Assembly: GCA_016748015.1 (NCBI GenBank)
Contig: JAAOMT010000577.1
Coordinates: 540,666-604,665 of the forward strand
Length of the DNA stretch: 64,000 bases
Direction of reading: 5' to 3'
DNA from: Geosiphon pyriformis uo1
Lineage: Eukaryota > Fungi > Glomeromycota
Positions 8,893 to 59,194 of this stretch are shown here, piece by piece. A program made the position numbers and the translations under genes. The number at the start of each line of letters is the position of its first letter. Within the stretch, counting starts at the first letter, position 1. The notes under the pieces were generated by a model. That model was not told the DNA's origin and did not search any database. It saw nothing but the letters and a program-made list of their open reading frames with translations.

Positions 8893-9034
8893 CAATAAAT
8901 AATTTTTTTAACTTTTTTTTTTATCAATTTTTTGGCCACAACAGAAGCAAAGATTTATCAAAAATTTAATTAGTCTTTTTTTTTTTCTTTTGTATCTCTT
9001 TAATTATTTCTTTTAATTTTTTTTTTTTGTTGTA

Positions 9035-15557: not shown

Positions 15558-15690
15558 TATTGTCTTGTCTAATCCAAGTGATTGGTTACATGTAGCCAAT
15601 AAATGAATCATGTTTAGTTAGAATTATTAAGTTTGATTCTGTATATTAGATAGTAGTTAGACTTTACTTATTAATTATTAATAAAAAAAA

Positions 15691-20955: not shown

Positions 20956-21073
20956 CTTGTTGATCCCTTGGTTATAATAAGACTAAAAAATTTATTAAAG
21001 TTATAGCTTTCTTTTTTTTTTTTTCTCTTTGTTTCCATCAGTTATTTTTTCAAGTACTTCTAATTTTGTCATA

Positions 21074-25900: not shown

Positions 25901-27230
25901 TGGGTTAGTTTGTAATTATTTGTTGAATGTTATGTCTAATAGTTTTTTTGTCTATATGGATGAATCTCTAAAGAACTTAGGAAGTATTAACATAAAAGCT
26001 GGTACAGCAGTTTTTTTTGAGGATATAAACTTGGGTTTGGAAGTTAAGATTTCTGGTCTAATATCTTTTATTTTGGCAGAGTTGCAGACTATTGCTTTTG
26101 TTCTTGAGTGTGTTTCTTCTCAAAGCTCAGTTTACTTTTTTACAGACAGTCAAGCTGTTTTGAATATATGTAAGTTGAAATTGGGTCTAGTGTATCCAGA
26201 TTTTTAGAATTGGTATTGGATTGAACATCAGTATATTATGAACATAATTAGAAAAAAGAATATAAATATTAGCTAACACAAAATGAAAAGTCATTTGAGA
26301 GTCTTAGGTAATAAATGTGCTAATATATTTGTTAACACTGCTTTTTTTTTCCCTAATATCTTTCTCTCTGCTTAGAAAAGTGTTGCATTTTGGCTGAGGG
26401 TAATGTTATTTCTGGTAATCCTAAACATTTTATTTATGAAGTCTTTTGAGCTATTTATTATGCACATTGAGAAGTTGGTTTTGGTTTTAAAGTTTTGAAT
26501 AATAATTTGCTTTTAAATATCAATTGGCTTAGTTTATTTTTGGTGTGACATCCCAACTTACATATGGCTGTTGGTTTTACTAATAAGCTTACTACTGAGA
26601 TCTGTATATATTTTATAAAGGCTTTACATCATTGGTTTTTTGTTACTGTTCAGAAGTGCTTATATAATAAGTATTATCTTAGTGTATCATGTTTGTATTG
26701 TGGTGATGTTGAGATTTCGGATCATGCTTTTTTTTGTGTAGTTAATAATTTTGTTTGTCATTGATTGTTGAATGCCCATGTAATTGCTTGGAATGTGATT
26801 TTTGGTCTTTTTCTTTTTTCTTTATGTGTGTTTTAGTTGTTGTCTTCCTGTATTACAAATGCTGTGGTGTGCACAACTTTATGTAAAGACAAAGTTTTTA
26901 GAAATTGGCTTCAGGAAGTTACATCTGTCTTTGGTGGTTCTAAAATAGCAGTTTGAAAGGTTAAGAACTTTGTGTGTGACTTCTGTCTTGCTTTCAGAAA
27001 TGAAGTTTAATTGATCTGTGCTAAACATCATACTTTGATGAAAAAAAATGAGCTTATATCAGTTGATAATTCAGCTCTAGTTTTGGTTCCTAGGCTGTTT
27101 TTAGTGCTTTCTGCTGGTATGGTTAAGTTGTTAGGAATTGTTAAAGCATTTGAAAATGGTTTTGATTTTTGTAGATGTAGTTTGTTTTTTTAGATATTGA
27201 GAACTCAGTCTTGGTTTATGTAGGTACTTA
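22967..27230 (+). pseudogene. LINE ORF2 remnant (APE, RT, RNase H, zinc finger) (L-d)
   Basis: MNEFV*KFATYNVRG start, IETKL, ILGENFN, TIDYVFVS; RT GAFVNNTIW; RNase H VYMDES, ELQTI, FTDSQA; CLYCGDVEISDHAFFC. Confidence 0.88.
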
Positions 27231-27360
27231 ATGTTGTTCTAATTGGCCCAAGTAACTGGTCATATGTAGATAATATATAATTCATACTTAGTTTAGATCA
27301 ATTTTTGATGTATAGTACTAAGCAGTGTTTGGACTTTACTTGTTAAATAAAAAAAAAAAA

Positions 27361-28836: not shown

Positions 28837-31022
28837 TGTTACAGATAATTATTTGAGATCTTAAAGCAAATAACAAACCTGTAATTTAGTGCTACTATGA
28901 TGATAATAATCTCTAAAGGTTTTGTTACTCTGAAGGTTTTGTTAATTTGAAGGTTTTGGGTTTGAGTTCTTTGTATAATAGACAGAGATTCAATAGTTGT
29001 TTTATTCATAGCCTCTTGGAATCACAATTTCATCAAATTTTTTTCTTCAGTATATTAGCCAATTTATTCTAACAGTCATGCTTTTCTGATAAGTTATTCT
29101 CAATTTTCGAGTTTCTTACCCTTATTTTTGGGTCTTTTATCAGGCTATTTTTGATGTCTATAATTCAGTGCTTAATTCTTAATCAATTAGTAAACAATAA
29201 AAAACAACAAAAGAAAATAAAGAAATAAAAGAAAAATGCATAAAATAAAGCCAAGGTAATTAAGTTAATATCCCATTAATAGCTATGATTAAGAGCTATT
29301 GTTCTAGTATAGTCAAGTATGGATTACTATTAACATAAAGTATTGATAGTATACAATTGGATTGATATAATTAATAAGTATATTTATTGATAGTGTAAAT
29401 GTATGAATGCTAACTAGAAAATAGAATTCAGAAGTCTGTCTTTTCTGCTTTTAATGTTATTACTATATATATATAATTGAGATTTCTCAATTTCTGAAAT
29501 TATGCAATTTCTTGAGAGTAATCCTAGAATTCTAGAATCCTGCAATTCTTTATATGAAAATTTTGTAATTCTGGAATTCTGCAATTTTTTTGAAAAAAAT
29601 CCTAGAATTTCCTATTTACTATGTTTACTTCTGATTGGCTAATTTATATGCTAATATAATTTCTATATTTTATAAGTAATATTATTCTCTTTTTTTAATA
29701 TTGAGCTTTATTAAAATCTCCTAATTTCTCTAATTCTCCAGATTAAATCATATTTTGAATTTTTTTTTCAAGAATTACTTGTGTTATTTTGATCTGTAAT
29801 TTCTTAAATTGAATATTGGTTATTTTACCATTTGATTAATAGTAACTGTATCCATTTCTGAATTGAATAGTATTTCTGGTCAGTCTTGGAATCCAGCTTG
29901 TAATTGATATATTGCTTGTGCTTATGTGGTTAGATTGTTTTTTCTCAGAAATTATTTAAGTTGTTGTAATATTTTTGTATTAAATAATTATTTTGTTTTA
30001 TTTGTATATAAATTCTAAATGTTCAGGTGTTGTTCCAAGTAAAAATAATAAAAGTTTTTTGAAAATTGTTGTGTCTACCAGTTTCAAGTTTCTTTAATTA
30101 ATCTTTAATATAATATGGCTTTTGTTTGTACTTCTATTGCTATTTTTACTTTTAAAATTATCTTGTCAACAATATTTTCTGGTTTTTTCTGTACTTTATA
30201 TTGGAGTTTTTTTTGTATTTTTATATCAAATGGTTTGCTGGTTAATTGTAATTTTCATATTTTGTTGTTGAACCAGTTGGAAGAGTTGTTGTGCTAATGT
30301 GTAGATATTGTCAGTAATTTTTATTTTTCTGGTATCTTTTGTTATATGCTAATTCTTTATATAGAGTTTTGATATTTCAATTTGATATGTTCGTGTTGAT
30401 GATTATTATTGATTCTAGATCTCATAGAATTTCTTTTAGTTGAACTAGTATTTTTTGTATTTCCAATTGTAGAATATTATTAGTTAATAATAATGCTATT
30501 CTATATTATAGTTTTAGTCAATTACCATGTGCTGCTTTGATTATAATTTTGTTGTTCCATCTTAATTTATAAGCTCTATTTCCTAGAATTTTTTTTATGT
30601 GAAATAATCCATCTTATTTGGAGTCAAATTTTCTATTCTATTGTTTTTCCACTTTGGTATTATATAAAAGTACTTTGTTTCTAATTTTAAATTCAATTGA
30701 TTTGTCTGATAGTTGGTTATTGTGTCTTTTTTTTGTTTTTTTTGTGACTTTTTGATATTGTTAACTGTTCTTTACCATTTGTTTTTTAGTGTTTCCATTA
30801 AGTTATATGTTTTTTTTAACAATGTTTCTTGAAAATTCTCTTCTGTTATTGGTTTTGTTGGATATGTTTTGACTTCTATTTTGACTGGTACTATTGCTGT
30901 TTTATTATATACTAATTCAAATAGTGTAGTTTGTGTAGTGTCTTGTTTCATTGTCTAATAAGCAAATAATATTGATAGTATAAACAAATCTTATTCATCC
31001 TGGTTTTCTTGGCTGATTTTGG
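28837..31022 (-). mobile_element. Ty3/Gypsy element D remnant (B-related): integrase C-terminal half, ORF3, PPT and 3' LTR (28837-29681)
   Basis: LTR edge tgttacagataattattt as in B; 29682-31022 colinear with 42946-44297 of B; ends abruptly at the LTR of C. Confidence 0.88.
29695..30324 (-). pseudogene. ORF3 of element D (unknown function)
   Basis: Homologous to B ORF3 (AIYQLQAGFQD*PEILFNSEMDTVTINQ vs TIYQLYNIFQNYPEVLLHSDMETITINQ). Confidence 0.75.
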
Positions 31023-31968
31023 TGTTACCAGTAGAATTTTAGCTATTAATTAGCATAAAATTACCCTTATAATTCTTATTATTAATTAGCATATATTATT
31101 ATTATTTCGAATATCACTTATTAATTAATCAAATTTTCCAATATTATTACTCAATCAATAATCCGATTTGTACCATAAAAATTAAGATAATCAAATTACA
31201 CAATACCCTAAACTATTTAACATAGTCAAAATTCGCCGAAATTAATAAAAATTGGCCGAAATAATCAATAGTTTAGTGAAATAATTTGTAGTTTACTAAA
31301 ATGTATCTTTAGTTCACCCAAATTGTAGCAAAAAGAAAAAATGCAAGTTCAAAGACTAGTATTATAACAAGTTGTATAAAAAAAAGCTTTTCTCTTTAAA
31401 AAAATGTATTTTCTCATAATATCTCAATATAGTATCTTAATTTAGATATTTTAATTAAAACAAATTATCTTTTACACATTTCAAATAAAAATTATTATAT
31501 TTGAAACTTCCTTATTACAACTAACGTTTTAAAATTGATTAGCTACCAATTCCAATAATTTGTTAGTGACTTCAGGCCTGGATAGAAAATGTTTTCTTTG
31601 ACACAATTCTATTTCTTTATATTTCTTTTATTTTTTCTTTTTTTCTTATTATAATCATTAGGGTAGCCTACAGACAAGATTTCTGTAGAAGAGTTGACTT
31701 TTACAGCAAAGTAATTACACATTTTTAGTGAGCTTTCAGATGAGCAATTCCTGAAAAAAAGTTGACATTTACTACAATGTAACTACATAAAATAACTGAC
31801 AAGGAATTGGCTATTCCACTTATAAGCCCAGCAGTTCAAATTATAAGAGATAATTTGAAGATAAATTCAGTTACTGGAGGTCCAACTACTTCTAAAAAAC
31901 GTGAATTCACAGCAAATCAACATTAACAACATTCAAAAAAAAAAAAAGACCAAAAACTTTTAGTAATA
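31023..31968 (+). repeat. 5' LTR of element C
   Basis: tgttacc...tagtaata termini; direct repeat of 59881-60823; inverted homologue of the A LTRs. Confidence 0.9.
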
Positions 31969-31970
31969 TT

Positions 31971-31979
31971 TGGTGCTCT
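31971..31979 (+). promoter_or_regulatory. PBS of element C
   Basis: tggtgctct 2 nt after the LTR. Confidence 0.7.
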
Positions 31980-32013
31980 CTCATGGAAATAATACAGCAA
32001 CAACAAATTCAAA

Positions 32014-32224
32014 GTGGTGACCATACCAAACACAACAACTCTAGAGTATTATCAGTCAATTTACACCTACTGCAAGCAAAGATTCAACATCTCAGATGGA
32101 ATTAAAGTTGTCAAGAAATCAGTATACCAATACATTGAAAATCATATCAACAATTATCTTTTTGGAAACTACAATATTTCAGAAGTTAGAAGCAACCTTT
32201 ACAATAATTTAGTGCACTATTCAC
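32014..32224 (+). pseudogene. gag: gag N-terminus of element C (continues at 52223)
   Basis: VVTIPNTTTLEYYQSIYTYCKQRF matches the start of the A gag ORF. Confidence 0.85.
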
Positions 32225-32349
32225 TGTTACAGATAATTATTTGGGGTCTCAGATCAAATAACAAATCTGTAACATGGTGCTTGGTTGGTATTCTGTGGTT
32301 GATATCTGAAAGTTTTATTGTAGAGTTCTTTGTATAATAGACAGAAAGT

Positions 32350-33335
32350 TGTTACCAAAGGTTTTTGGTCTTTTTTCTGTAATGTTGTTGATACTTATTT
32401 GCTGTGAATTCACGTTTTCTGGATGTGGTTGAACCTCCAGTAACTGAATTTTTAACTTCAAATTATCTCCTATAATTTGAACTTGCTGGGCTTATGAGTA
32501 GAATGGCCAATTTCATGTCAGTTGCTTTATATAGTTATATTGTAGTAAACGTCAACTCTTTCCCAGGAATTGCTTGTTTAGAAGCTCACTAAAAATGTGT
32601 AATTACTTTGCTGTGAAAGTCAACTCTTCTACAGGAATCTTGTCTGTAGGCTACCCTAATGATTATAATAAGAAAAGAAAAGAAAAATAAAAGAAATGTA
32701 AAAGAAATAAGATTTTTATCAAGGGAACGTTTTTCTATCCAGGCCTGGAGTCACTAACAGTTTACTGAAATTGGTAGCTAATCAATTTCGAAATGTTAGT
32801 TGGGTTTTTGGAAGTTTTTTCAAGTACAATAATAAAAAAATTTGGTTTTTCGAATTATTTGATATTTATTTCTTTTTGTGTATATAGGAACGGTTTTAAG
32901 AGATAAATTTAAAGTAAGATACATTTTCTCAAAGAGAGAAGCTCTTCTTTTATACAACTTGTCATAACACTATTCTATGAACTTGAACTTTGCTATTTTC
33001 TACAATTTCACTAAACTAAAGATACATTTTGGCAAACTACAAGTTATTTCTGCGAACTATTAGATATTTCGGTAAACTATCAATTATTTTAGCAAATTTC
33101 TATAAATTTCGGCAAACTTTTGAATGTTACATAGTTTGGGGTATTACATGATTGATCATTGCAATTAGGTTACATTTGTGTTGTGTACAATTTGGGTTAT
33201 TAATTAAATGATAATTTCGGACATTCTTTGTTAATGTAATAAGTAATAATTTGAAACAATAATATATGCTAATTAATGATAGGAATTATAAGATAGTTTC
33301 ATGCTAAATAATATCTCTAATTTCGTCTAGTAATA
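32350..33335 (-). repeat. 3' LTR of element A
   Basis: 986-bp direct repeat of 41219-42204; PPT gaggaggagatta immediately upstream on the minus strand. Confidence 0.95.
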
Positions 33336-34023
33336 TAATCTCCTCCTCAAGACTGAGTTTTGTCGAAGTCCAAGTACTGTCTGTTATTTCCAGATAGTAA
33401 TCCAAAATTATTGAAGAAATTTGGTCTGAAAATTGTTGAAATTTCAGTTCTGTGAGCTTTCCGATGTATTGAATCTTCAAAGATTGAAAAATTAGGTTTT
33501 GTAGTATATTTTCACAGGTGTGAAATAGGTCATAAAGTCTAAGAGCAGCTCTAAACCTGTAGCGACTGTTTGTTGATCCAGCTATTGTCTTGAATTCATT
33601 GTGGAGTTGTTTCTGAATAGCTTCTTTTGTGAGGTTTGCTGTTGTAAGTTCCAGTTTCCATTTGTAGAGTGTTTTTCCAATATGAAAATATCTATAGATT
33701 GAAGGATATTCAGTGTTTTTCTTATTGAGACACAGTTGAAGTTTTTGTTGAATTGTAGCATTTGGTGGAATACTAATCAGAGTGAGCATTAGGTTTTCTC
33801 TTAAAGCAAGCTTTAAAAGTTCTGGCAGGTGAATTCCAGTATAACTTCTTGTGTTTTTTTTATACGGGTGATATTTTCGTGAATTTGGGGCTAAATTTGT
33901 AACTACTTCTGTTTGGGTATAATTAATGTGGTTTCCAGTAACAGTAATGGATAATTTGGGTATTGTTTTTAAAGCTAACATTAGTTTTTGGGATAATTGT
34001 TGAATGTTTTGAGGAATAGTCAT
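33304..34023 (-). CDS. ORF3 of element A: intact ~239-aa protein of unknown function, reading through the PPT into the 3' LTR
   Basis: Uninterrupted frame from ATG 34023; homologues at the same position in C, B and D; no signal peptide or transmembrane stretch apparent. Confidence 0.8.
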   Translation of the reverse strand: MTIPQNIQQLSQKLMLALKTIPKLSITVTGNHINYTQTEVVTNLAPNSRKYHPYKKNTRSYTGIHLPELLKLALRENLMLTLISIPPNATIQQKLQLCLNKKNTEYPSIYRYFHIGKTLYKWKLELTTANLTKEAIQKQLHNEFKTIAGSTNSRYRFRAALRLYDLFHTCENILQNLIFQSLKIQYIGKLTELKFQQFSDQISSIILDYYLEITDSTWTSTKLSLEEEIILLDEIRDII

Positions 34024-34139
34024 TATAAGCAATTGAAAAAAATAAAAAATTATTTTTGGTGTATGGGTTTTTATGTTATTTTTGTTTTGTTTTTGTGAGA
34101 TTGTTTCTAAATTATAAGAGAATAACTAGTAAAATTAAA

Positions 34140-35525
34140 TTAAGTGTTCAGGTTAGAAGATTGTTCAATAACAACTATTAGTTCTAAGTTTTGGGGAATA
34201 TCTTCAGGACTAACCAAAGGGGAATGTGTACCAATTTGTGGAATTAATGGTTCAGGATTGTTTCTGGAATGATAGTGTTTCAAATGATCTCCATATACAA
34301 CTTTTGCTAGGATTTTGTTATCAAGTCTTAACTTGTATGATCTGTTGTCTAGGACTTCATGGATAAAGAATAGTCTATCCCATTTATTTTCAAATTTTCT
34401 ACTCCATTATTTTTCAGCTTTAGTTATGTGTAAGAGAACTTTGTTTTCAATTTTGAATTTATTGGTAACTGAAGGCAATTTGTCATCATGCTGTTCTTTT
34501 TGTTGAGCTTGGGAGTGTTCAATATGGGTGGCTGCTATTTGTCATTTTTTTTCCAATGTGCTAAGCAGAGTGTAGGCTTTTCGCTGAAGCATTTCTTGGA
34601 AATTGTTTTCATTGATCAGTTGTGCTGGGTATGTTTCCACTGTGAAACTAATTGGTAACGTTGCTGTCCTTCCATAAGTTAAATCAAATGGTGTGTGTTT
34701 CATAGTATCTTGTTTTAATGTCCTATATGCTAATAACACTGATAGAATAAAAAGATCCCATTCTTGCTCAAAATCGGTTGAGACTTTGGCTAATAACTCA
34801 CACAATGTTCTGTTAAAACGTTCTACAAGTCCGTTTATTTGTGGATGGTAGGGCAAAGACAGAGGTCTTTTGACATTGAATCGTTCACAAATTTCTTGTA
34901 TCAGGTTGTTCACAAAGTGTGTTCCCTGATCGGATAAAAGTTCAATTGGACATCCATGTCTACAAATGATGTCTTCATAGATGAAATTTGCTACTGATTT
35001 TGCATCTGCTCATTGAATGGCTCTGGCTTCAGGCCATTTAGTAAGATAATCTACAGCTACTGCAATATAATGGTTTCCTTGAGTGGTAATAGATAGTGGT
35101 CCGACTAAATCAATACCAACTCTGTCAAAAGGCTGTTCAACTTTGATTGGATTTAAAGGTTCTGTAGGGCAAGTTCCTCCTCTTCTTTGACAACTATCAC
35201 AAGATTCAACATATTCATGAATGTCTTTTCTCATTCGAGACCAAAAGCAGTATTCTAGTGTTCTTTGGGTGGTGTTATCTTTTCCGAAGTATGCTGATGA
35301 AGGATCTGAGTGCATATTGTATAAAATGGTCTCTTTTTCCTGTTCTTGTATTAATCTGAGTGGTTTGGTTGAGTTTTTGAAATTTTGATAATAGATAATG
35401 TTGTTGTGTAAAAAATATTGTTTGGCTTGTTGTTGTAACCGATGTTTTTTGTCTAGGAACCAATCTGTTGGGATTGTTAATGTTTCCAAATATTGTTTGA
35501 GATTGTTGTAGTTTTCGGGGTTCAT
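34140..35525 (-). pseudogene. Integrase of element A (separate ORF)
   Basis: ATG 35525; zinc-binding region (HSDP...CDSCQRR), VGIDLVGP, VDYLTKWPEA, SDQGTHF, YHPQINGLVERFN, GPY/F-type tail. Confidence 0.93.
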
Positions 35526-35574
35526 TGTTTGTTGTTTTGATGCTGTTAATTCAAATGGGTGTTGGTTTTGTTTT

Positions 35575-37001
35575 CTAATCTTGCCTCATTCTTGAGAGAC
35601 AATCAACGTTAGTGTGAAGTTTTTCTGGTTTGTGGTGTACAATGTATTGGTAATTAGCTAAAAATTCTGTCCATTGGATTTGTTTTGTGTTCAGCTGGGT
35701 GTTTTTGTTTTGAAGCCATTTAAGTCCAATATTATCAGTGATAATATCGAATTCTTTGGGTCTGAGGTAAAGGTTGAAGTGATATAGGGCTCAGATTACT
35801 GCTGCAGTTTCTAATTCTGTTGTAGGGTAGTTCTTTTCGGCTGGCTTTAATGTTCTACTAGCATAAGCAATTACTCGCTCATTTCCATTGTCATCTAACT
35901 GTGATAGGATGGCACCAAAGGCAGTATAAGAGGTGTTAGTTGCTAACTGAAATTGGTTGCTGAAATCTGGGTAGGCGAGGATTGGAGCTGTTGTGAGTTT
36001 TTCCTTAAGTATCTCGAAGGCATTTTGGTGTTCTTCTGTTCATTTGTATTCGACATTTTTAGTAGTGAGCTGGTTGAGGAGTTTTGCAATTTCTGAGAAT
36101 CCTTTGATGAATTTTCGGTAATAGGATGCTAATCTAATAAATCCTCTTAATTCTGTGGTATTTTATGGAGTCTTAAAGTTCTTGACAGTACTGATTTTTC
36201 CAGGGTCTGGTTTAATTCTATCTTTGCTAACAATGTGACCAAGAAAAGCTAAACTTGTTTTTCCGAAGTAGCATTTTTCAATGTTCAGTTTCAATCCTGT
36301 TTTCCGTAATCATTGAAAAACTTCTCGCAGGTGAATTAAATGTAGCTTGAAAGATAGTGAATAACATCAGTGTCATCAAAATAAACTACTACTGATTTCC
36401 AAAGGAGGCTTTTGTAAACAACATCCATGAGTCTTTGAAATGTTGCTGGTACATTGCATAATCCAAAAGGCATTACATTAAACTCGTAATTTTCTTCTTG
36501 AGTAGTGAATGCTGTTTTGGGGCAGTCTTTAGGATCCATAGCAACTTGCCAGTATCCACTCTCTAAATCTAATATTGAAAAGTATTTGGACTTCCCAAGG
36601 GCATCCAACATGTTATCAATTCGGGGAAAAGGGTAGGCATCTCCAATAGTGACACTGTTGAGTTGTTGGTAATCAACACAAAATCGTATTTTTCCATTTT
36701 TCTTTTTAACTAGGACCACAGGTAAGGCCCATGGGCTCATTGATGGTTGAATAAGCCCATTGTTAAGCATCTGTTGTACTTCTTCTCAAATAAATTGGTG
36801 ACTTTATGGGGCAACTCAGTAGGCTTGTTGTTGCTTTGGTTTGGCATCTTCTGTATAGATTTGGTGTTGAACCAAATCAGTTCTTCCTAAGTCATTGTTG
36901 TTTTTGGCAAAGATGTCAGCAAATTCTGCAATTAGCTCTTTGAACTGGGTCTGTTGTTGTGGTTCAAGTTGTCCCATGTTGATTCGAGATAGTTTTTCCA
37001 T
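35575..37001 (-). pseudogene. pol: Reverse transcriptase and RNase H of element A
   Basis: SPWALPVVLVKKKNGKIRFCVDY, LDLESGYWQ, MPFGLCN, VYFDD, FLGH; RNase H ends NVDCLSRMRQD* at 35575. Confidence 0.95.
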
Positions 37002-37413
37002 GACAATATGGTAGTTTTCGGAGCTGGGGTTTGGGTTGGTTTTTGGTATTGAATGTTCAATAATTTTAGAGAAATCGGGAACTATTTGGGGTAATTCTTG
37101 TTGAAATATATTACTGTGAATAACTCCAATTTCTAAATTATTTAATAAAATTATGGGGTAATTATTGGGGTTGTAAAAAGTAACTCAGACTTTTTTTATT
37201 CCTTCTGGAATATAAATGTTTGGAATCAAAATATTATGTTTCAAGCAGACTTGTTTATTGGACTCAAAAATTTGTTGTGTGGCTGTTGGCTTTGAGCAGG
37301 TGTAGATTTCCAGATGTTCTCCAAAGGGTGAGATAGTAATCGGTTGTGGAAGTCTGAGAATCTGGTGGGATTTGTTCTGTGTATTAAGAGCTATATTAAC
37401 TGGAACTGTGAAT

Positions 37414-37805
37414 TGTCCAGTTGAACCAAAACCTTGGGTTTCTCTATTGCTTTTTCCTAATTGTTCTCTTTGATTGACTAGTTGCAAACCCGAAATGTTG
37501 ATTAAGGGTAGGTAAATAGCTTGGGCAATTTTTTCAGTATGTTTGATCTTAAATGGTTTGTCAGTTTCATTTTGAAGTATCACTTTTATGTCTCCAGTAT
37601 ATTTAGCATCGATTATTCCTCCTCTGATATTGATTCTTTTGCTTGCCAGAGAGAACCGGAAGGCAATTTGAACCATTGCTCCTGGCGGGTTTTCGAGTGC
37701 AATTTTGAGATTGATTTTTGTGAGAGATTTGGGTTTGAGAACAAGAGTATCCTTGCCTGGATATCTTAGGTCATATTCAGCATCAATTTCGTGTGCTTTT
37801 TCGGG
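37414..37805 (-). pseudogene. dut: dUTPase domain of element A polyprotein
   Basis: Five trimeric dUTPase motifs in order: DAEYDL, RFSLA, GGIIDAKYTGDI, KIAQAI, RETQGFGSTG. Confidence 0.93.
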
Positions 37806-37949
37806 TTTTATTTTTTGTCCGTTGTTGTTAAAGTATTTAAGTTGTAAGGCAGGCTGATTTTCGATAAGGTAGATGGTTGTTGTTTCAATTTCTTCTGTTT
37901 CTTCAGGTTCTCCAAATTCAATTTCATTCTCATCATTTTTGCTAGGCAA

Positions 37950-38590
37950 GAGGATACTAAGAGCATAGCATTTAGAACACCATTGTTCATCACAAGGCAT
38001 AATATATTCTTCATATAGCCTAATGTTCATTTGCTCTAATTGTTGAATTTGAGCTTCTTGGATTGGATAGGTGTGACTTGCAATTTGGTGGTAGACTTCT
38101 ACTTCATCTTCATAATCAAATCCAGCTAATTCCATAATGTATTCAATGTATTCTGCTTTCTTCATTTGATGAACATCTTCTTTGATAGCTTCATTAATTA
38201 ATGCCATTGCTAAGTTGAAAATCATCTTGGCATCATGAGGATAGTGATAAAGTTTGTTGAGAGCATTGTTGTATGCTGCATTAAAGAGTGTTCCTCTTTT
38301 TACTTTTTCTGAAATTGATAAAGCATATTGGCAGGTCTGATCACAGACGCCTCCTCTCATTGCTACATCAATCCAATTGCATTCTTCTGGTAACATATTT
38401 CCACAAGTCAAACAAGAGGTGTTGTCTCATTTTCCGCTCCTTTTTATTAGATGGCTCCATTGCTCTCTGTGGCAAGTCTTGCAGTAATAACAAGTATGAT
38501 TCTCATATTCTTCTTCAGATAAAATGCAGGCTCCCATTGACGATAGTTTCTTGTGGCAGTCCTTACATTTAAGGGGAATATAGGGGTGTT
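37950..38590 (-). other. Cys-rich putative multi-zinc-finger domain between protease and dUTPase (element A)
   Basis: CKDC, CKTC, CLTC, CDQTC and a later MPC-x4-CSKC cluster; Cys pattern conserved in B and C. Confidence 0.7.
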
Positions 38591-38821
38591 GTTTCTTTGG
38601 TTTGGGTTTTGAGTAAAATATATTCCATCCAGAGGTTTTGGGTTTAGTATGTGGGGTAAAATGTTCTTGTTCTGTTTCATCGACCCAGTTGGACGTTGAT
38701 CCAAGAGCCATGAATGTTTTGATTATTGGTTTTTTTCTTCTGGTTCAAATTCAAAAGCCAGGGCTTTTTCAGAGCATTTGTTAAATGTACCACAAATGGC
38801 AGGTACCTGGGCGTGTTGTCC

Positions 38822-39199
38822 TTAGTAGGAGATTGTTAACTCTTGTGTTTCCCAATTCAGATTAGCATTGGCTTTTTGAAGCCAATCATTTCCGATGAGA
38901 GCTTGGTACTGGGGTGCATCCATTACAAGAACTTTGACTGGAATGGTGATTTCATTAAGAGTGAATAGAAAATTGTCAATTTCTCCTACTGGGGTCTTTT
39001 TCATGCCATCAGCAATAACGATTACTGTTTGAGCTGGTTGGTTGACATTTCTTTTCAACTGTTGCATTAACTGGTAGGTGATAATGCTTCCGGTGGATCC
39101 ACTGTCTAAGATCAAGCAAATTGGCTTTCCTTCTACTTCAGCTTCTGTGTACATTGTAGTGATGGCTTTTTGCTCATTAGCCGCTGCATTGCTAAGCAA
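38822..39199 (-). pseudogene. Aspartic protease of element A
   Basis: LILDSGSTGSII and ALIGNDWL motifs; in frame with gag. Confidence 0.92.
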
Positions 39200-41176
39200 G
39201 AATGGTGATTCATTTGCTTCAAATTCAAAAAAAAAGATATCAGAGAGATTGGCGTTTTCAGCAATTCAGGCTAGTGGAATAGTGGTGTAGTTATGAAAAG
39301 GGTTTTGTTGTTGTTGTGCTGCAGCTCTACCTTCCAAGAGTGCAGTATGGTGAAAATCCTGTTCTTCCGGCATTGTTAAATAACTGGGTTGAGTGTGGTA
39401 GTGGTTGGGTCTTGGTTGAGTGGTATTTCGGGAAACCAATTGGTTGTTCGAACTGATTTTACTGTTGTTTACTTGGTATCGGTTTTGTGGTGTGAATTGA
39501 TTTTGTGTAATCAGTCTTCGAGCAGGTACTTGATAATGTTGTGTGGGTGGTTGTTGGTATTGCTGTTGGATTGGTTGTGGGGTGGGCTGATAATAGTTAT
39601 TTTGGTATTGGGGTCTTGGTGGATAGTAAGCTGGTGATAATGGTTGATAATAAAATTGCTGTGGTGGAGAGTAACATTGATTACCTCTATTTTGTTAGTC
39701 TCGTTGTAGCTTTCTGCAATTTTTTTTCTAGTGGCCAGAGATTCCACAGTAATGGCAATTCTGGGGCTGGTTATTGGAAAGTGGTACAAAGTTATTTTGA
39801 TTTCATCTTTGGGGTGGTTGATATCTTTGTTGTTGTTGGTTGGTAAAATAGTTTTCGACCTTCTTTGTGAGTTGGTCAATTTTTTTCTTAGCTGCTGAGC
39901 TGGTTTCTCTAATTGCCAAATTTACAAGTTTTGTATGATTGGCCTCTTCCATGGCCATTTTGTATCTTTTTGCATGCTGTATGGCAAAGTTTAAATCTTC
40001 TGGCGTGTGTGAGCAAACCTTTTTAATTAGTTTATCTTTTAGACCAGCGATAAATTGATCCAAGATTTAAGCATCGGAATAATAATTGTTTGTCTCAAGT
40101 TGGCAAATCTGTCTGAGAAGTTTGTTGAATTTCCCAATATAAGTCATAACGGATTCGGAGGGTTCTTGTTTGATATTTCAAAAATAATTGTGAAGAGTGA
40201 TGGAGGTATTATTGTCGGTGAACTGTTCAAGGAAGGCTGCTTTGAAAGCGTTCCAATCATTGAATAGGACGGCCAGGTTTTCAAACCATTCTCCTGCTGT
40301 TTTTTTGAGAAAGTATGGAATTGTTCTTAACATTCTGGTGGCATTCCATCCATTTGCATCTCCGGCTTTAGTAACTTGGTCGAGCCATTCTTGAGAACTC
40401 GTTTCAATGTCTTCTCTATTAAAGTCAGGGATTTTTGCGATGTATGTTGTCATTTTGTCTTCTTCATTTTCACTGTCTATTAATTCTTTTTCAGTTATTT
40501 CAGAGTTGTTTTCTTCATTTGCTGCTGTCTCAGAGTGTTCACTTTGATTTTCAGCTAAAAAATCAAGGAGATTGGAACTAGTTTGAAGGGGTTCTTGTTG
40601 TCTGGTGAGACTTCTGAGTAATGTAAAATCTTCTGGTCTTGCAAATTGATTCAAGAGTGAATTAGGTGTTTGTGCTTGTGCAAGTGAAGCTGGAAAAAGT
40701 GTAATAGTAAGTGGAAGTTTTGAGCTGGTTCCTTGTTCAGGTGTTTGTAGATATTTGAATGATATTTTGGGAGTATTGGGTGTTGTGTGAACAGGTTGGT
40801 TATCTTTTTGTCTTTTGTTGCTACTGGTTTCAGGTTCAGATTTGAGTTCAAAGGCAAATTGTGTGTTTGCAGGATATTTTTCTTCACAGAATCGAATAAT
40901 ATTATAATTGAGTTCCTCAAAATAAGTAGTGCAAGCTTCAGCACTAATGTTTTCTGATTCAGTGTTGGAATAGTGTAGTATGTTCTCAAGAAGATCTCTT
41001 TTAACTGTTGTAATGTTATAGTTCTCAAAGAGGTAGTCATTGATTCGATTTTTGATGTATTGAAAAAGTGTTTTCTTAAAAGCTATGATTCCGTCACATA
41101 TTTCAAATCGTTGTTTACAGTGTGTGTAAATTGATTGATAGTACTCTAAGGTTGTAATGTCTGAGGCAGTCACCAC
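39200..41176 (-). pseudogene. gag: gag of element A
   Basis: ORFs 40178-41176 and 39803-40063 share a frame; capsid-like WLDQV...ANGWN...AGEWF, DQFIAGL; knuckle CHYCGISGH*KKNC; Q/P/N/Y-rich tail. Confidence 0.9.
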
Positions 41177-41207
41177 TTTAAATTTGTTACTGTGTTATTT
41201 CCGTGGA

Positions 41208-41216
41208 AGAGCACCA
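41208..41216 (-). promoter_or_regulatory. PBS of element A
   Basis: tggtgctct on the minus strand, 2 nt from the 5' LTR. Confidence 0.7.
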
Positions 41217-41218
41217 AA

Positions 41219-42204
41219 TGTTACTGAAGGTTTTTGGTCTCTTTTCTGTAATGTTATTGATACTTATTTGTTGTGAATTCATGTTTTCTGGATGTGGTTG
41301 AACCTCCAGTAACTGAATTTTTAACTTCAAATTATCTCCTATAATTTGAACTTGCTGGGCTTATGAGTGGAATGGCCAATTCCGTGTCAGTTGCTTTATG
41401 TAGTTACATTGTAGTAAACATCAACTCTTTCCCAGAAATTGCTCGTCTGAAAGCTCACTAAAAATGTGTAGTTACTTTGCTGTGAAAGTCAACTCTTCTA
41501 CAGGAATCTCATCTGTAGGCTACCTTAATGATTGTAATAAGAAAAGAAAAGAAAAATAAAAGAAATGTAAAAGAAATAAGATTTTTATCAAGGGAACGTT
41601 TTTTTATCCAGGCCTGGAGTCACTAACAGTTTACTGAAATTAGTAGCTAATCAATTTCGAAATGTTAGTTGGGTTTTTGGGGGTTTTTTCAAGTACAATA
41701 ATAAAAGAATTTGGTTTTTCGAATTATTTGATATTTATTTCTTTTTGTGTATATAGGAACGGTTTTAAGAGATAAATCTAAAGTAAGATACATTTTCTCA
41801 AAGAGAGAAGCTCTTCTTTTATACAACTTGTCGTAACACTATTCTATGAACTTGAACTTTGCTATTTTCTACAATTTCGCTAAACTAAAGATACATTTTG
41901 GCAAACTACAAGTTATTTCTGTGAACTATTAGATATTTTGGTGAACTATCAATTATTTTAGCGAATTTCTATAAATTTCGGCAAACTTTTGAATGTTATA
42001 TAGTTTGGGGTATTGCATGATTGATTATTGCAATTAGGTTACATTTGTGTTGTGTACAATTTGGGTTATTAATTAAATGATAATTTCGGACATTCTTTGC
42101 TAATGTAATAAATGATAATTTGAAACAATAATATATGCTAATTAATGATAGGAATTATAAGATAGTTTTATGCTAAATGATATCTCTAATTTCGTCTGGT
42201 AACA
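41219..42204 (-). repeat. 5' LTR of element A
   Basis: TGTTAC...GTAACA termini; repeat of 32350-33335. Confidence 0.95.
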
Positions 42205-42945
42205 GAGTTAATTAATGAATTTATCCATAGCTTCCCAAAACCACAGTTTTGTCAAATTTTTTTCTCAGCATAATGGCCAGTAATCTTCTTAATAAGCTAT
42301 CTTCAAATTTATGAGTATTCCACCCTTGTTTCATGGGTCTTTTACCAGTCACTATAACATCTGTATCTCAGTGCTTTAATCCTTAATCAATTAGTATACA
42401 ACAATAAAATCAAAGAAAGAGAAGAAAATAAAAGAAAATAAAATAAAAAAATGAACCAAGGCAATGTATGAGTTAGTATTCCGTCAATAGCTGTGATCAA
42501 GAGCTATTGTTCCAGTGTGATAAAGTATCAATTACTATCAATATAAAGTGTTGATAGTGATGAGTGGATTGAGATAGTGAATAATTATTTATTGATATTT
42601 GTGATGTGGAAGGTTTTTAACTAATAAATTCTGTTTTTTCTACTTCTAATGCTACTACTATATATACATAATTGATGTTTTATGAGATTGCTCATATTCC
42701 CGAGCAATGTGCTATAATTTTTTGAGCAATGCTCACATTGCTGAGTGATGTGCTCTTATTTTCTAACATCACTCCACATTGCTGAGCAATGTACTGTGTT
42801 TTCTAATATTCCTCTATATTGCTAAGCAATATGCTGTGATTTCTATCATTGTTCTATATTGTTAAGCAATGTGCTCATGTACTACATACTATTTTCTTAT
42901 TGGTTTACTATTTTTCTATATCTGTTTTTTTTTCTATAAGTAATA
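42205..42945 (-). repeat. Larger part of the split 3' LTR of element B
   Basis: Aligns with ~51473-52218. Confidence 0.93.
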
Positions 42946-42959
42946 TTATCTTCTTCTTT

Positions 42960-43595
42960 TTAATATTGAGCTTTGTCGAAATCTTTGTTTTGAATTAATT
43001 CTAATACTTCTTTTTCAAGTATTGTTTGTTCGACTCTGTTTTTCACATCTTCTACTTGTGTATTGTTCATTTTTCTCCATTGGTTGATGGTTATGGTTTC
43101 CATATCAGAGTGTAACAGTACTTCTGGATAGTTCTGAAATATGTTGTATAGTTGGTATATTGTTCTAACATGTAGTGTTGAATTTGTTTTCTTTTCAATA
43201 AATTCTTCAATTTGTTGTATTATGTCTTGGTTAAATATTTTCTTGAATTTGTTGATATACAACTCCTGAATATTCAACTTTTAATCTAACTGGTAGTAGC
43301 AATATGATATTGGAAGTCATTCTGTCCATTGCTTCCAATTTTCTTTCATAAGCTCTTCTGTTGGTGCCATAACAGAAATTTTCCCAAAAGTGTTCTTCAT
43401 TTTTTCTATTAAATTATCTGTCCAGTTTTTATTGTTCTTTGGTAGTCACTGGTATGATGTATTCTTTGTTTTTTTTTGGTTGTTTCAGTAGCAAATTATT
43501 TGGTTGTTAATTACAATTTCCATATTTAACTGTTGTTCACTTAAGGCCTAAAATAATTGTTGAGCTATAGTGTGAATATGATCTGATATTTTCAT
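42960..43595 (-). pseudogene. ORF3 of element B (unknown function)
   Basis: ATG 43595 (MKISDHIHTIAQQLF*AL) resembles the A ORF3 start (MTIPQNIQQLSQKLMLAL); RTIYQLYNIF resembles RAALRLYDLF. Confidence 0.75.
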
Positions 43596-43650
43596 TTTTC
43601 TTGGTTGCTTTTGTTATGTATACTGTGTCTTTATATACTCTTCGGTTTGT

Positions 43651-45034
43651 TCAATTTGATGTGTTTGGTTCAATAACTATAATTGGTTCCAGATCTCATG
43701 GTATCTTATTTGGTTGGACTAGTATTCTTTGTACTCCCAGTTATAGAATGTTATTGATAGATGATAATGCTATCTGGTGATATGGTTTTAGTCAATTACC
43801 ATGTGCTGCTTTGGCTAAAATTCTGTTGTTCTATCTTAATTTATAAGCTCCATTTTCAAGAATTTCTTCAATGTGAAATAGTCCATCCCATTTGGGGTCA
43901 AATTTTCCACTCCATTGTTTTTCTGCTTTAGTATGATGTAGAAGTACTTTGTCTTCAATCTTGAATTCAACTGGTTTGTCTGGTAGTTGGTTATCATGTC
44001 TCTCTTTTTGTTTCTCTTGTAACTTTTAAATGTTATTAGCTGCTCTTCATTGCTTGTTTTCTAGAGTTTCCATCAAGTCATATGTTCTTTTTAGCAATGT
44101 TTCCTGAAAATTGTCTTCAGTTATTGGTTCTGTTGGATAAGTGTTAACTTTTATCTCGACTGGTAATGTTGCTGTTCTATCATATACTAATTCAAATGGT
44201 GTTGTTTGTGTAGTGTCTTGCTTCATTGTCTGATAAGCAAATAGTACTAATAGTATAAATAAATCCCATTTGTTCTGGTTTTCTTGACTGATTTTGGCAA
44301 CTGCTTCACACAATGTTCTATTGAATCTTTCAACTAGTCTATTGGTTTGTGGATGGTATAGTGATAACAATGGTCTTTTAACTCCAAATTTTTGACTTAA
44401 TTCTGCCAGTGTTCTGTTCACAAAATGAGTTCCTTGATCTGATAATAGTTCTTTTGGACATCTGTGTTGACAGATCAAATCTTAATAGACAAATTCAGCA
44501 ACAAATTCTGCATCTGCTCTTTGAATGGCTTTTGCTTCTGGCTATTTAGTGAGATAATCCATAGCTACTGCAAAATATCTGTTGCCTCTGCTGGTAATTG
44601 TTAATAGTCCAACTAAGTCAATTCCAATGTGATCGAATGGTTGTCTCACTTTGATTGGTCTTAATGGTTCATTGGATCTTGTTTCTCCTCTTTTTTGACA
44701 AGCATCACAATTTTGAACATATTGAATAATGTCTGGATACATTGATGGCCAATAGTATCTTTTTCTGGTTCTTTCTATGGTTGCTTCTTTATAAAAATGT
44801 CTTGCTGTTAGGTCTGAGTGCATGTTGAATAATATTGTCTCTTTCTCTGGTTTTGTGATTACTCTGATTGGTTGATCTGAATTTCTTCTGTTTTTTCAGT
44901 AAAGTATATTTTGATGATTGATAGAATATTTTGATTGTTGTTTTATGTTGTTTTGTTCTTTTTTGAGATAATTTCTCCTTGAATAATTGAGTATTTATAT
45001 AATGTTGAAGTTATTGGTATTTTTGTATATTCAT
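43651..45034 (-). pseudogene. Integrase of element B (separate ORF)
   Basis: ATG 45034; HSDLTARHF...CDACQKR, IGIDLVG, SDQGTHF, YHPQTNRLVERFN, WDGLFHI. Confidence 0.92.
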
Positions 45035-45064
45035 GTTTTGTTATATTTTTGGGTTAAAATGTTT

Positions 45065-46480
45065 TTAGATTTGTCTTATTTGCAACAATCTGTCAGCATT
45101 TCTATTGTCTTTTTCTTTTTTATAATGTATTGTATAATTAAATAATGAAAGTTCTATTTTCCATCTGGCATAACAATCATCTGCAAATTCTTGTTTCTGG
45201 ATTGAAGTCAATCCCTTGTGATCTATATATATTTCAAACTTTTGGTTCAAGTATTCTCTCCATTTCATAACTGCTTAATAGATTGCTAAATGTTCTAGTG
45301 CTGGTGTTACATAGTTTTTTTCGGCTGGACTTAAGCTTTTACTGGCGTAAGTTACTGGATGTTCTCTTTCATCTGGTCTTTTCTGTAATAGTACTGCTTC
45401 CAATGCTTAACTTGATACATCCGTAATAATGATGAATGGTTTGCTGTGGTCTAAATACATCAACACTAGAGCTTGAATAAGCTTTCTTCTCAATGTGTCG
45501 AATGCTTCTTGTTAAGCTTCAATCCATTCATACTTTACATTCTTGGTTTGTAGATGGTAAAGTGGCTGGACTAGTTTAGAAAAGTCCTTGATGAAATGGT
45601 AATAATAGCCTGCGAATCCCAAAAATGTCCTTAATTCTGGCAAGTTTGTTGGTACTGGAAAGTTTTTTACTATTGCAATCTTATTTGAATTCATTTTGAT
45701 ACCATCTTTGCTCATCATATGTCCCAAAAATTTGAGCTCAGTTTTGCCAAAGAAGTATTTGTTGGCATTTAGTTTCAATCCTGTTCATCTGAGTTTTTCA
45801 AATACTTGTTGGAGATAATGTAGATAGTCATTAAATGTCTTAGAAAATACATTTGTGTTGTCTAAGTATACAATTACTGATTTCTATAGTAATCCAGTAT
45901 AAACAATTTCCATGAGTCATTGGAATGTTGCTGGAGCATTCATCAAGCCAAATGACATGACTTCAAATTCGAAATTCTCTTCTCTTGTCGTAAATACAGT
46001 CTTTTCTTTGTCGGCTGGGTCCATGGCTACTTGCCAGTAATCACTATCTAAATCTAGTATTGAGAACCATTTATTTCTTCCAAAGGTGTCGAATAGTTCT
46101 TGAATTTTTGGAGTTGGGTAGCTGTCTTTTTTGGTTACTCCATTTAATTTCTGGTAATCTGCACAAAAGCAGATTTTTCTATTCTTCTTTCAAACTAGTA
46201 CTACTGGTAATAACCATGGACTCATTGATGGCTGAATTAGTCCATTGTCAAGCATCCAATTGATTTCTTAACAAATAATCTCATGACTAGCTGGTGGTAC
46301 TCTGTATGCTCTTTGCTTAATTGGCATTGCATCTCCAGTCTTGATCTGATGCTAAATAATATTGGTGTGGCCAAATTCATTTTTGCTTGCAAAGATGTCA
46401 TTGAAATTACTGAGTAACATTTTTAGTTGCATTTGTTGGAGTGGGTCTAGATTCCCTATGTTGATCTGTTTTAATTGTTC
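45065..46480 (-). pseudogene. pol: RT and RNase H of element B
   Basis: LKFLGH, LRTFLGFAGYY, YIDHKGL, NRNADRLLQIRQI*. Confidence 0.92.
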
Positions 46481-46894
46481 TGGTTGGAGTAGATAACATT
46501 CACTTCATCCATATATAGTCTGTAATGTAATGTCTATATATCCACAAAGCTGTAAAAAGTCTGGAATATGGTTTGGTGGTTGATTCTCAACTTCAGTGGT
46601 TAAATATTCAGTGATGATTCCTTTTGGTATTTTAATGACATTTTCTGTTGTGTTGTAGATGGGAATTTTGATATTTTTGGGGCTTTTGGCTGATATATAG
46701 AGATTTGTGAATCTAATTTCTTCTGATTCGCAAATGGTGGCTTCTGCTTCAAACAACTAAGCTTGATTCTTTACTTTTCTTTTTATTGCTAACATATACT
46801 GGTCATATGGTGGAATAAAAATTAATTGATGGGTTAAGATAATTTCTCCTTTGTCAATAACCTCTTCCTCTGCCATATTAACTGATATGTCTAT

Positions 46895-47290
46895 TCTACC
46901 CATTGATTCAAATCCCTGTATCTCTCTAGTAGTAATCCCTAATTCTTCTCTGTTTTCCACTAACACTAATTGAGCTATTTTTACCAGAGGTAGGAATATT
47001 GCCTGTGCTATCTTTTTGTTTAGATCTATAGTATATGTTTTTTCTGAATTATTTTGTAGCATAGCAATAATATTTTCTACATATTCTGTGTCAATTATTC
47101 CTCCTCTGATGTTTATTCTTTTTTTTGCTAAACTACTCTTGGATGCTAATTGAACCATTGTTGTTGCTAGAATTTCCAGTGCTATTTTTAGATCAATGCA
47201 AGTGTGCAAATGTGATTCCAATTTGATGGAATCTTTCCTTGGATATCTCAGATCAAATTCTGTATCAGTATCATGCATGTGTTCAGGCAT
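46895..47290 (-). pseudogene. dut: dUTPase domain of element B
   Basis: DTEFDL, SKSSLA, GGIIDTEYVENI, KIAQAI, REIQGFESMG. Confidence 0.9.
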
Positions 47291-48564
47291 AATACCTTCA
47301 TTATTATCACTGAACTATTTCAGTTCTTGCTTCTTGGTAAGATCAGAAAGAGTGATATATGTTTTAGAGTTTGAATTGGGGTCTGAATTGTTGTTATTTT
47401 TGTTGCTGTTTTGAGCTGAGCTAGAACCAGTGTTTTCATTGTTGTCATTGTCAGAGTTTGAATTGGAATTGAAAACTGATTCTGATTCTGATGCACAGTT
47501 ACTGATTGGCTCTTCTTTCTCTGGGATTGTGTAGATCATGCATGGTAGTAAATTGTAAATGAAGTCACATTTATTACAATATTAGAAGTTACATGGGATT
47601 AAACAGTGGTCACATAATTGAGTGTTGATTTCTTTTAAGCATTGCTTCTGCTCTTTTCTAGTGGGTGCTAGACACTGGTAGTGTTCGTGAAATTTTTTTG
47701 GATTGTCCTCTATGTTGCCAAAGATGTCGAAAGTTTATACGTATTCAGGTTTAGGAAGAGACAAAAGGTTGTTTTTGATTTCTAGTAGTTCACTGGTTGT
47801 CACGCTTTCTGCTTTCACATATGTCAATCTCTATAGTTTATTTTTGTTGTAAGAATATCCTTCCAATTGTCGCAATGCTCGTTTCCAGACATCATCGATT
47901 AGTGTTCTTTGTTTACCCAGTTGTTGATTAGAATCGTATACTGACACATTTTATTGCACGTTCCTCTATGCCCAGGAATGTCATTCCACATTTCTTTGTT
48001 GGGCAAAATGGTTCCACATGTGAGACACAGTTGGTTGCTTCACTTTCTTTGTTGTTTCAGTCATCCAAAGCGTTTTATGACGCATGGGTGGCAATAAAAT
48101 TTTGTTGCCATGGAGTATTCCTTGTTATTGCCACAGCATGCACCCATTGACAACAATCTCTTGCCACAATTGACACACTCTCATTTTGGTTGACAATAAT
48201 TGGATGGTGGTAATGAAGTGTAAGCATATGGACTATAAGTACTACTGGTGAAAGAGGTTTCTTTTTTTTTCCTTTTTTTTTTTCCCTTATCAGTTTCTTC
48301 CCACTTCCAGTTTGCTGGTTCATCTTGGTCATTATCAGTTTCCTAGTTTTGATTGGTATTCTAGGTAAGTTCTTTGATTTCCTTTCCTTTTCCCTTGTCA
48401 TTCCAAGAAAGTATTGGTGGTAGCTTATTGTAGTCTTTGTTGGCCCAAGAGACTTAGTACACTTCGCAGGTAGGTTTCTTTTTTTTTTCTTTGAATTTAA
48501 TAAGTGGAGCTAATGGCATAGTGATGGGTTTGAAATGGCTACATGTGGCTGGTACATGTGTATG

Positions 48565-51291: not shown

Positions 51292-51331
51292 TGTTGATTT
51301 ATTTGTTGATGCTGGTTCTCTGTAAGATTAT

Positions 51332-51349
51332 ATCTTACAGGGAGCACCA
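51332..51349 (-). promoter_or_regulatory. PBS of element B (probably elongator tRNA-Met)
   Basis: tggtgctccctgtaagat 2 nt from the LTR. Confidence 0.7.
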
Positions 51350-51351
51350 AA

Positions 51352-52218: not shown

Positions 52219-52222
52219 TCAC

Positions 52223-57596: not shown

Positions 57597-57654
57597 TACC
57601 AACAGCAATTTCACCACAACTTACTAACTTATTAACAAAAATAACCAAACAACA

Positions 57655-59038: not shown

Positions 59039-59194
59039 TTTAATATTTTTACAATAATTCTTTTAATAATACACAAAAACAGAAAACAAAAATAGTAAAA
59101 TAACTACAAGAAACACTCAAATTCAAAAACAAATAAAAACTTTATATCCAAAAAATAATTTTCTTTATTCTTTTTATTAGTTAGTTATTTTATT

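Follow-up and report, generated by a model that had tools for sequence, protein, structure and literature searches.

Long terminal repeat retrotransposons with a separate integrase gene, nested in a contig of Geosiphon pyriformis

The window analysed in this work is a stretch of 64,000 nucleotides (nt) from Geosiphon pyriformis uo1 (assembly GCA_016748015.1, contig JAAOMT010000577.1, positions 540,666 to 604,665, forward strand). It holds three long terminal repeat (LTR) retrotransposons of Ty3/Gypsy type (A, B, and C) and a fragment of a fourth (D), of which element A is one minus-strand LTR retrotransposon at 32350-42204. The polyprotein of these elements ends after RNase H, and the integrase is encoded by an open reading frame (ORF) of its own that is followed by a third ORF (ORF3). 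This separation had been proposed in the initial annotation and was observed at all three junctions that the window contains (A, B, and C). The split gene layout itself is almost certainly real and lineage-wide.

The polyprotein frame in A, B, and C stops three to four codons past the end motif of RNase H. The spacer between this stop and the integrase methionine is 49 nt in A (+1 frame), 30 nt in B (same frame, behind a stop), and 58 nt in C (+1 frame). The comparison of A with C gives transversion values of 0.31 and 0.23 in the two spacers, which also acquired out-of-frame indels, versus 0.05-0.12 across the coding domains from gag to ORF3 and 0.17 in the gag N-terminal extension. The differences between A and C are biased towards the third codon position in ORF3 (14/15/32 at codon positions 1/2/3) and in the integrase (16/9/40). 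Therefore, the spacers are non-coding and ORF3 has evolved as a gene. The same junction stop is present in the three copies although the protein identity of reverse transcriptase and RNase H (RT-RH) is down to 53%. Fragment D retains only the integrase end, ORF3, and an LTR, thus the junction between RNase H and integrase is not represented there. The proposal that all four share one layout holds for A, B, and C; D lacks the junction, and the palindromy that had been included in the layout is not common to all.

The layout was compared with that of 80 metagenome loci that were fetched as DNA. They were retrieved with a free-integrase profile, a sampling that favours the family. All 34 loci with RNase H upstream of a family integrase are split (34/34), and most of them have long open frames. 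The relative frames 0, +1, and +2 occur at 10, 15, and 9 of these junctions. The gap from stop to ATG ranges from -20 to several hundred nt, and 9 of the 34 overlap or lie within 2 nt; the true gap of L038 is 61 nt, where the apparent 943 nt is due to an internal stop. Eight of eight more distant elements with RNase H and integrase in one unbroken frame were recovered as fused in a genome-contig scan (L084-L090 and L092), so the method detects fusion where it is present.

The search with RT-RH (proteins of 753-2398 amino acids, aa) provides an independent check on the bias of the integrase profile. Among the 120 matches listed, an integrase is present in 0/68 at 53% identity or above and in 50/52 below 53%, the latter from animals, a choanoflagellate, and Chara. 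One continuous Pol, the outcome by which the initial annotation would have been overturned, is thereby excluded for both sets of close relatives. The integrase search was confined to 253-807 aa, a limit that alone proves nothing, and returned 990 matches; among the 120 listed, 118 start with methionine, mostly at the same MDxxxY position. The named hosts of the relatives are Rhizophagus irregularis, Entrophospora, Gigaspora margarita, and Geosiphon, and the group is widespread, probably in fungi of the mycorrhizal type.

Both trees were constructed with IQ-TREE from subsets (61 of 122 RT-RH rows and 48 integrase rows) and were midpoint-rooted. The integrase tree places 26 split or free rows on one branch (support 97/99). 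The RT-RH tree places 38 split rows and one fused row (L090) on one branch (support 96/98). The comparison elements in both trees are unclassified animal, choanoflagellate, and metagenome elements and not curated references, and no Ginger sequence is among them.

The features of element A are as follows.

41219-42204, minus strand: 5' LTR, 986 nt; a TATA-like box at 41824 is preceded by a tandem array of 20-nt units at about 41853-41992
41209-41216, minus strand: core of the primer binding site (PBS), TGGTGCTC, the same in A, B, and C; TGGTGC[C/T] in five relatives
40454-41194, minus strand: gag N-terminal extension, open, without a remaining ATG in A; no Pfam match
39266-40453, minus strand: Gag with a capsid-like part, a zinc knuckle at about 39757, a Q/P-rich region, and internal stops
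38822-39265, minus strand: aspartic protease (Pfam), DSG at 39106
37900-38600, minus strand: putative zinc-binding Cys/His-rich insert; no Pfam match; codon-position bias between A and C
37416-37805, minus strand: dUTPase domain, PF00692 (Pfam E 2e-18; in C, E 3e-8)
35575-36900, minus strand: RT and RNase H, terminating at TAG 35577-35575, with one frameshift near 36363
35526-35574, minus strand: spacer from RNase H stop to integrase ATG, 49 nt, non-coding, ATG-free
34140-35525, minus strand: free-standing integrase ORF, 461 codons, with H2C2 finger, DDE core, and C-terminal domain; three internal stops in A
34024-34139, minus strand: spacer between integrase and ORF3, 116 nt, non-coding
33304-34023, minus strand: ORF3, 239 aa, intact, overlapping the polypurine tract (PPT, 33348-33340) and the first 32 nt of the 3' LTR
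32350-33335, minus strand: 3' LTR

Element A ends in TG..CA, is flanked by a target duplication of 4 base pairs (bp) with one mismatch, and has both PBS and PPT; no tRNA was found in the window. The Pfam domain order in A is gag (weak, E 0.005), protease, dUTPase, RT, RNase H, integrase zinc finger, and rve. The gag match in the decayed A is to PF03732, and intact homologues match PF03732, PF19259, or PF00098. Internal stops are present in every coding frame of A except ORF3, and the comparison with C reveals two single-base frameshifts in the polyprotein of A. The two LTRs (986 nt each) differ at 44 sites, every one a transition, pointing to broad cytosine deamination or a process like repeat-induced point mutation. 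These differences (32350-33335 versus 41219-42204) lie mostly outside CpG.

The remaining members of the nest are as follows.

32225-52218 (32225-32349 and 42205-52218, split by A), minus strand: element B, same layout, with a palindromic 40-nt U3 array, RNase H stop at about 45065, and integrase ATG at 45034
31023-60823 (31023-32224 and 52219-60823, split by B), plus strand: element C, 72% identity to A, RNase H stop at about 57596, and integrase ATG at 57655
28837-31022, minus strand: fragment D, with the C-terminal part of integrase, an ORF3 remnant, and a B-type LTR

The four elements are nested rather than side by side, where A lies within the 3' LTR of B, B lies within the gag region of C, and C adjoins the integrase of D. 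The insertion of B into C generated the 4-bp target duplication TCAC. The segment 31023-32224 was considered as a separate fifth element and rejected, as it is the 5' end of C. The LTRs of C are just 80% identical, its flanks differ from each other, and D lacks its upstream part, which suggests recombination or deletion.

ORF3 in C is broken yet clearly homologous to that of A (E 2e-62). ORF3 in B is weakly recognisable (E 0.001), that of D is not significant against the A-type profile, and B and D match each other. The third sense ORF beside the 3' LTR, ascribed beforehand to every copy, is thus well founded for A, where it is open, and for C, and less so for B and D. An ORF3 homologue follows the integrase in 23 of the 39 loci with at least 500 nt downstream, as detected with a profile built partly from the same families, and no antisense match was obtained. 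ORF3 in relatives usually terminates at the PPT or at the start of the LTR. The profile search returned 593 clusters (50% identity) at E 0.001 or better, whose named members belong to Geosiphon, Gigaspora, and Rhizophagus. All 120 listed ORF3 matches are annotated Geosiphon pyriformis proteins with identity up to about 90%, which points to this fungus or a close relative as the most probable host. The long and short forms of ORF3 are bridged by L002 (E 2e-20), and the tie between the long Geosiphon ORF3 and the short form seems, on these similarities, real but weak.

The AlphaFold models of ORF3 are confident and helical, with a predicted local distance difference test score of 82 for A (239 aa) and 96 for a member of 147 aa. 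The highest 19-residue hydropathy value of A is 1.0, and only 1 of 134 family members is above 1.6. As modelled, ORF3 is a conserved, soluble, all-helical family that is not Env. An errantivirus-like or env-bearing element was considered and rejected, as ORF3 has no transmembrane segment and its models are soluble and helical. Pfam on 25 ORF3 members gave nothing below E 0.01, the best E against PDB sequences is only 0.17, no PHROGs match was found, and Foldseek with the models against PDB and BFVD gave nothing at E 0.001, so that no similarity to the viral proteins in BFVD was seen. VIA on the 239-aa model gave a best Z of 4.3. The ESM Atlas returned clusters without names and, at 0.93 but with only 134 shared features, a RegA-type translation repressor, a weak lead that is not relied on.

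A motif of about 40 nt precedes the integrase AUG in 21 relatives and lies 3 nt from the AUG in 12 of them. Its covariance model detects 21 loci at E < 1e-7 and one weak locus, and none in the window; the motif therefore does not explain A, B, or C. The motif loci are as follows.

L010:296-332, L011:5194-5230, L012, L016, L018, L019, L021, L023, L030, L031, L035
L038, L042, L043, L053, L058, L062, L073, L076, L078, L082

The motif consists of a closing helix, a 12-nt purine-rich bulge, and a covarying hairpin. Across the alignment of 16 copies, pairing holds in 98.9% of cells, 6 of 11 pairs changed on both sides, and 0/500 shuffles reach the covariation score, where the structure was derived from the same alignment and the controls are accordingly lenient. 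Rfam on 10 motif loci (E up to 1) gave no match over the motif; the single match, MIR397, is below the cut-off and lies elsewhere.

We hold it to be about evenly balanced whether A to D are decayed copies of a Ty3/Gypsy-type lineage that, besides having a separate integrase gene, expresses it through translational restart or internal entry. The Gag-protease-RT-RNase H frame would end in a stop, and ribosomes that resume translation, or enter internally, on the element RNA just behind the Pol stop would read the integrase from its own AUG as a free protein. The element RNA would be polycistronic. The free integrase would not be carried in Gag-Pol and might be packaged through binding to genomic RNA or to Gag/Pol, as for the Pol of foamy viruses. 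The covarying hairpin before the AUG may act as a control or packaging element in one subgroup. ORF3 could act in trans as a nucleic-acid-binding protein that assists packaging or the expression of downstream genes, rather than as an envelope protein.

Stop-coupled reinitiation or internal initiation, to which we assign roughly half of our belief, is favoured over the same three-gene layout with integrase and ORF3 made from subgenomic RNAs (spliced from a 5' donor or transcribed from internal promoters), which is a serious although less probable explanation. Position -3 of the integrase starts is a purine in 52/58, versus 34-39/58 at -1, -2, and -7, and A occupies -3 in 40/58 starts versus 116/361 internal methionine codons; this good start context fits subgenomic RNA equally. 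The 29 spacers together contain 34 ATG versus a shuffled mean of 52, and 20 of the 24 spacers shorter than 100 nt are ATG-free. Subgenomic RNA is in keeping with spacers of up to 727 nt, the long ones of which have many ATGs, with the U-rich tracts that are found after many Pol stops and before ORF3 in A and C, and with the statement, in the available text of one source, that ORF3s of LTR retrotransposons are typically made from spliced messages (PMC5408684). However, a HAG splice acceptor is absent from 5/29 spacers and from the spacer of B, 9/34 junctions overlap or abut the Pol stop, and the pre-AUG motif covaries as an RNA helix, unlike a DNA promoter. The expression modes may differ between subgroups.

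The remaining explanations are far less probable. That integrase is still made fused to Pol, through readthrough or frameshifting programmed at the RNase H stop, is improbable: 10/34 junctions are in the same frame and a UGA-CUA context occurs elsewhere in the lineage, but the frames and gaps vary, the methionine and the purine at -3 are conserved, and the spacers evolve as non-coding DNA. Moreover, the context of the Pol stop is not fixed and its codon is usually UAA or UAG, and in most integrase frames a further in-frame stop lies a short way ahead of the ATG. An in-frame UGA-CUA, which we take to be a leaky-stop context, was seen between protease and RT in seven loci (L005:2882, L006:870, L032:3290, L034:902, L054:3358, L068:1585, and L091:2879) and suggests that programmed readthrough after protease may operate in part of the lineage; no such recoding signal was seen at the junction between RNase H and integrase. 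It is somewhat more improbable still that the integrase is a Ginger-like DNA transposase or an independent passenger beside an integrase-less retroelement. The free Gypsy-type integrases of about 420 aa resemble the N-terminal part of Ginger1 transposases, and Ginger1 likewise encodes its Gypsy-type integrase (about 400 aa) as a separate protein, has TGT at its termini, and generates 4-bp duplications, as far as the available text of PMC2836005 describes it; Ginger has been assigned in fungi on the strength of rve alone (PMC5751038, available text). Ginger1 differs in having terminal inverted repeats, no RT, and extra protease domains (PMC2836005), whereas the integrase gene here lies between RNase H and PPT inside elements that are bounded by direct LTRs with 4-bp duplications. 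RT-RH precedes the integrase in each of the 34 loci in which the query RNase H was detected upstream of it, and the RT-RH and integrase trees delimit the same group. The least credible explanation is that an ordinary single Pol was split by mutational decay. The window copies are without exception heavily decayed from C to T and G to A and contain many stops, but the junction stop is shared by the three copies and by all the split relatives, and fusion is absent from the close homologues. The decay explanation is refuted because the relatives are intact and split.

Several observations weigh against a lineage in which a separate integrase gene is expressed through restart or internal entry. 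Three long spacers (365, 521, and 727 nt) have 7-12 ATGs, which simple rescanning cannot cross, and related spacers are not independent samples. A short AUG-free leader with good start context is equally expected for a subgenomic RNA, and an acceptor could sit inside RNase H. A hairpin whose end lies 3 nt upstream of the AUG would impede scanning if it were neither melted nor bound. The fused L090 lies inside the split clade in the RT-RH tree (95/93) and outside it in the integrase tree. ORF3 was undetected in 16 of the 39 loci, hence it is dispensable for some members. The link between the Geosiphon ORF3 and the short ORF3 is weak in pairwise comparison (HHalign probability 13%, E 0.002), and the 122 Geosiphon-type proteins have a median of 13.7 bits versus 10.8 for the best decoy.

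The solved structure nearest to RT-RH is that of Ty3 (E 9e-103), followed by an entry at 8e-61 and by retroviruses at 1e-36 or weaker. The elements share LTRs, PBS, PPT, the Gag zinc knuckle, and the order protease-RT-RNase H-integrase with canonical Ty3/Gypsy elements (Metaviridae), for which the ICTV family profile places integrase inside pol and allows the genes gag, pol, and env (PMC7879559). In contrast, the integrase here is its own ORF and the third gene is not Env. The elements were not filed as canonical Metaviridae because integrase lies outside pol at 3/3 window junctions and 34/34 loci, with 0/68 close homologues fused, and they appear to be a Ty3/Gypsy-derived lineage rather than a canonical member.

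The dUTPase of element A lies between protease and RT, as reported for PosPlaTy3-5 of Postia, and other dUTPase-bearing Gypsy elements are reported from Phanerochaete and as Tmt1 of Tuber (PMC2864245, available text). That survey concerns chromodomain elements and mentions no split pol in its available text. Element A differs from them in its Cys/His-rich insert ahead of the dUTPase and in the chromodomain, of which none was detected in the Pfam scan of its integrase; the integrase homologues end at about 420 aa, and A is not classed as a chromovirus. The bdelloid rotifer elements Juno, Vesta, and TelKA also have dUTPase in pol and a third ORF that is not Env (a GDSL, DEDDy, coiled-coil, or membrane protein), according to the available text of PMC5408684. 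They differ in having integrase among the pol domains (PMC5408684), and ORF3 here has no significant family match in Pfam, PHROGs, or PDB. Troyka is likewise a divergent LTR lineage with the Gypsy domain order; it is described in the available text as having CG..CG ends and 3-bp duplications and as being from animals (PMC12440569), whereas the ends here are TG..CA and the duplications are of 4 bp (A and B).

The likeness to complex retroviruses that had been suggested for these elements is an analogy, as are those to foamy viruses, nef, and the caulimovirus TAV. In foamy viruses, Pol is expressed apart from Gag and is packaged through RNA; the split there is between Gag and Pol, and integrase stays in Pol. 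The lentiviral nef is an accessory gene that lies over PPT and U3. TAV is a viral protein that aids polycistronic reinitiation, and caulimoviruses have neither integrase nor LTR.

Integrase normally enters the particle within the Pol polyprotein in LTR retrotransposons and retroviruses. A large clade in which integrase is its own gene needs another route for translation, dosing, and packaging, and each step is testable because homologues with open frames are annotated in Rhizophagus irregularis. The findings also add a protein family for which no fold match was found, along with an RNA motif that no Rfam family matched, and they offer a plausible path from retrotransposon integrases to Ginger-like transposases. 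The available texts on the transposons of these fungi treat them at the superfamily level (PMC11952901; bioRxiv 2021.03.30.436303; PMC3248453; PMC13465315; PMC2774666; PMC5751038). No description of a split pol in this group was found in the literature searched, which consisted of freely available text and did not extend to Repbase, GyDB, or REXdb. There is a fair possibility, though the smaller one, that the layout is already annotated somewhere. We consider it only tentatively, and as rather unlikely, that the elements represent an undescribed, Glomeromycota-wide clade of polycistronic LTR elements in which integrase is released from Pol, a dedicated RNA element stands at the AUG, ORF3 is a helper of new fold, packaging occurs in trans, and an intermediate between Gypsy and Ginger is preserved. 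Such a clade would be a further case of eukaryotic polycistronic translation.

The findings also matter for annotation. LTR sequence is reported to make up 41% of the Geosiphon genome (PMC11952901, available text). At least 120 ORF3 copies in Geosiphon are labelled as hypothetical host genes, and these integrases could be misfiled by pipelines in which rve alone suffices for a Ginger call.

The zinc finger and dUTPase, which the initial annotation had counted as part of the layout, belong to the Geosiphon copies and not to the lineage core. The Cys/His-rich insert and dUTPase were found in 0/80 metagenome loci and were seen only in Geosiphon copies, and the family listings of the 68 close polyproteins include no dUTPase. 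The dUTPase of B is supported by its translation and by a nucleotide match to A. Two clade polyproteins (P0333 and P0352) have a NUDIX domain (PF00293), a second nucleotide-cleaning enzyme beside dUTPase in the clade, and an ORF in the ORF3 position of L020 (1945-2889) is presumably NUDIX-like, by recognition only. A tail of 200-400 aa follows RNase H in L011 (4357-5163), L021, L030, L041, L042, L053, and many of P0241-P0304; it has an acidic region and a conserved Cys/His domain, often ends in (A/I)(D/E)LD, and gave no usable ESM Atlas match and no PHROGs match. A Gag N-terminal domain with an H..H..CxxC pattern and an aromatic motif was seen before the capsid region, at the start of ORF1, in L001, L010, L011, L032, L041, L042, L045, L054, and L081.

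The U3 arrays (20-nt or 40-nt units) are true tandem repeats in A, B, and C. Palindromic arrays had been expected throughout; against dinucleotide shuffles, palindromy stands out in B (1/200 as high, both LTRs) and weakly in D (8/200), and it was rejected for A and C (18-190/200 as high).

Among the other loci, L081-L100 are eukaryotic retrotransposons in bacterial genome bins, including a Glomeribacter assembly, and are likely contamination. The integrase of L099 is upstream of RT, and the integrase frame of the fused L090 runs on for about 200 aa into a further domain. The viral contigs gave 13 pattern matches, none of which was confirmed. The window also contains mutually similar decayed repeats at 1-4000, 6000-8400, 9000-16000, 17300-20700, and 21000-27300. 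Pfam on these repeats recovered only a zinc knuckle, in the 6000-8400 copy, and their translations resemble non-LTR elements of the long interspersed nuclear element type, which we assume by recognition only.

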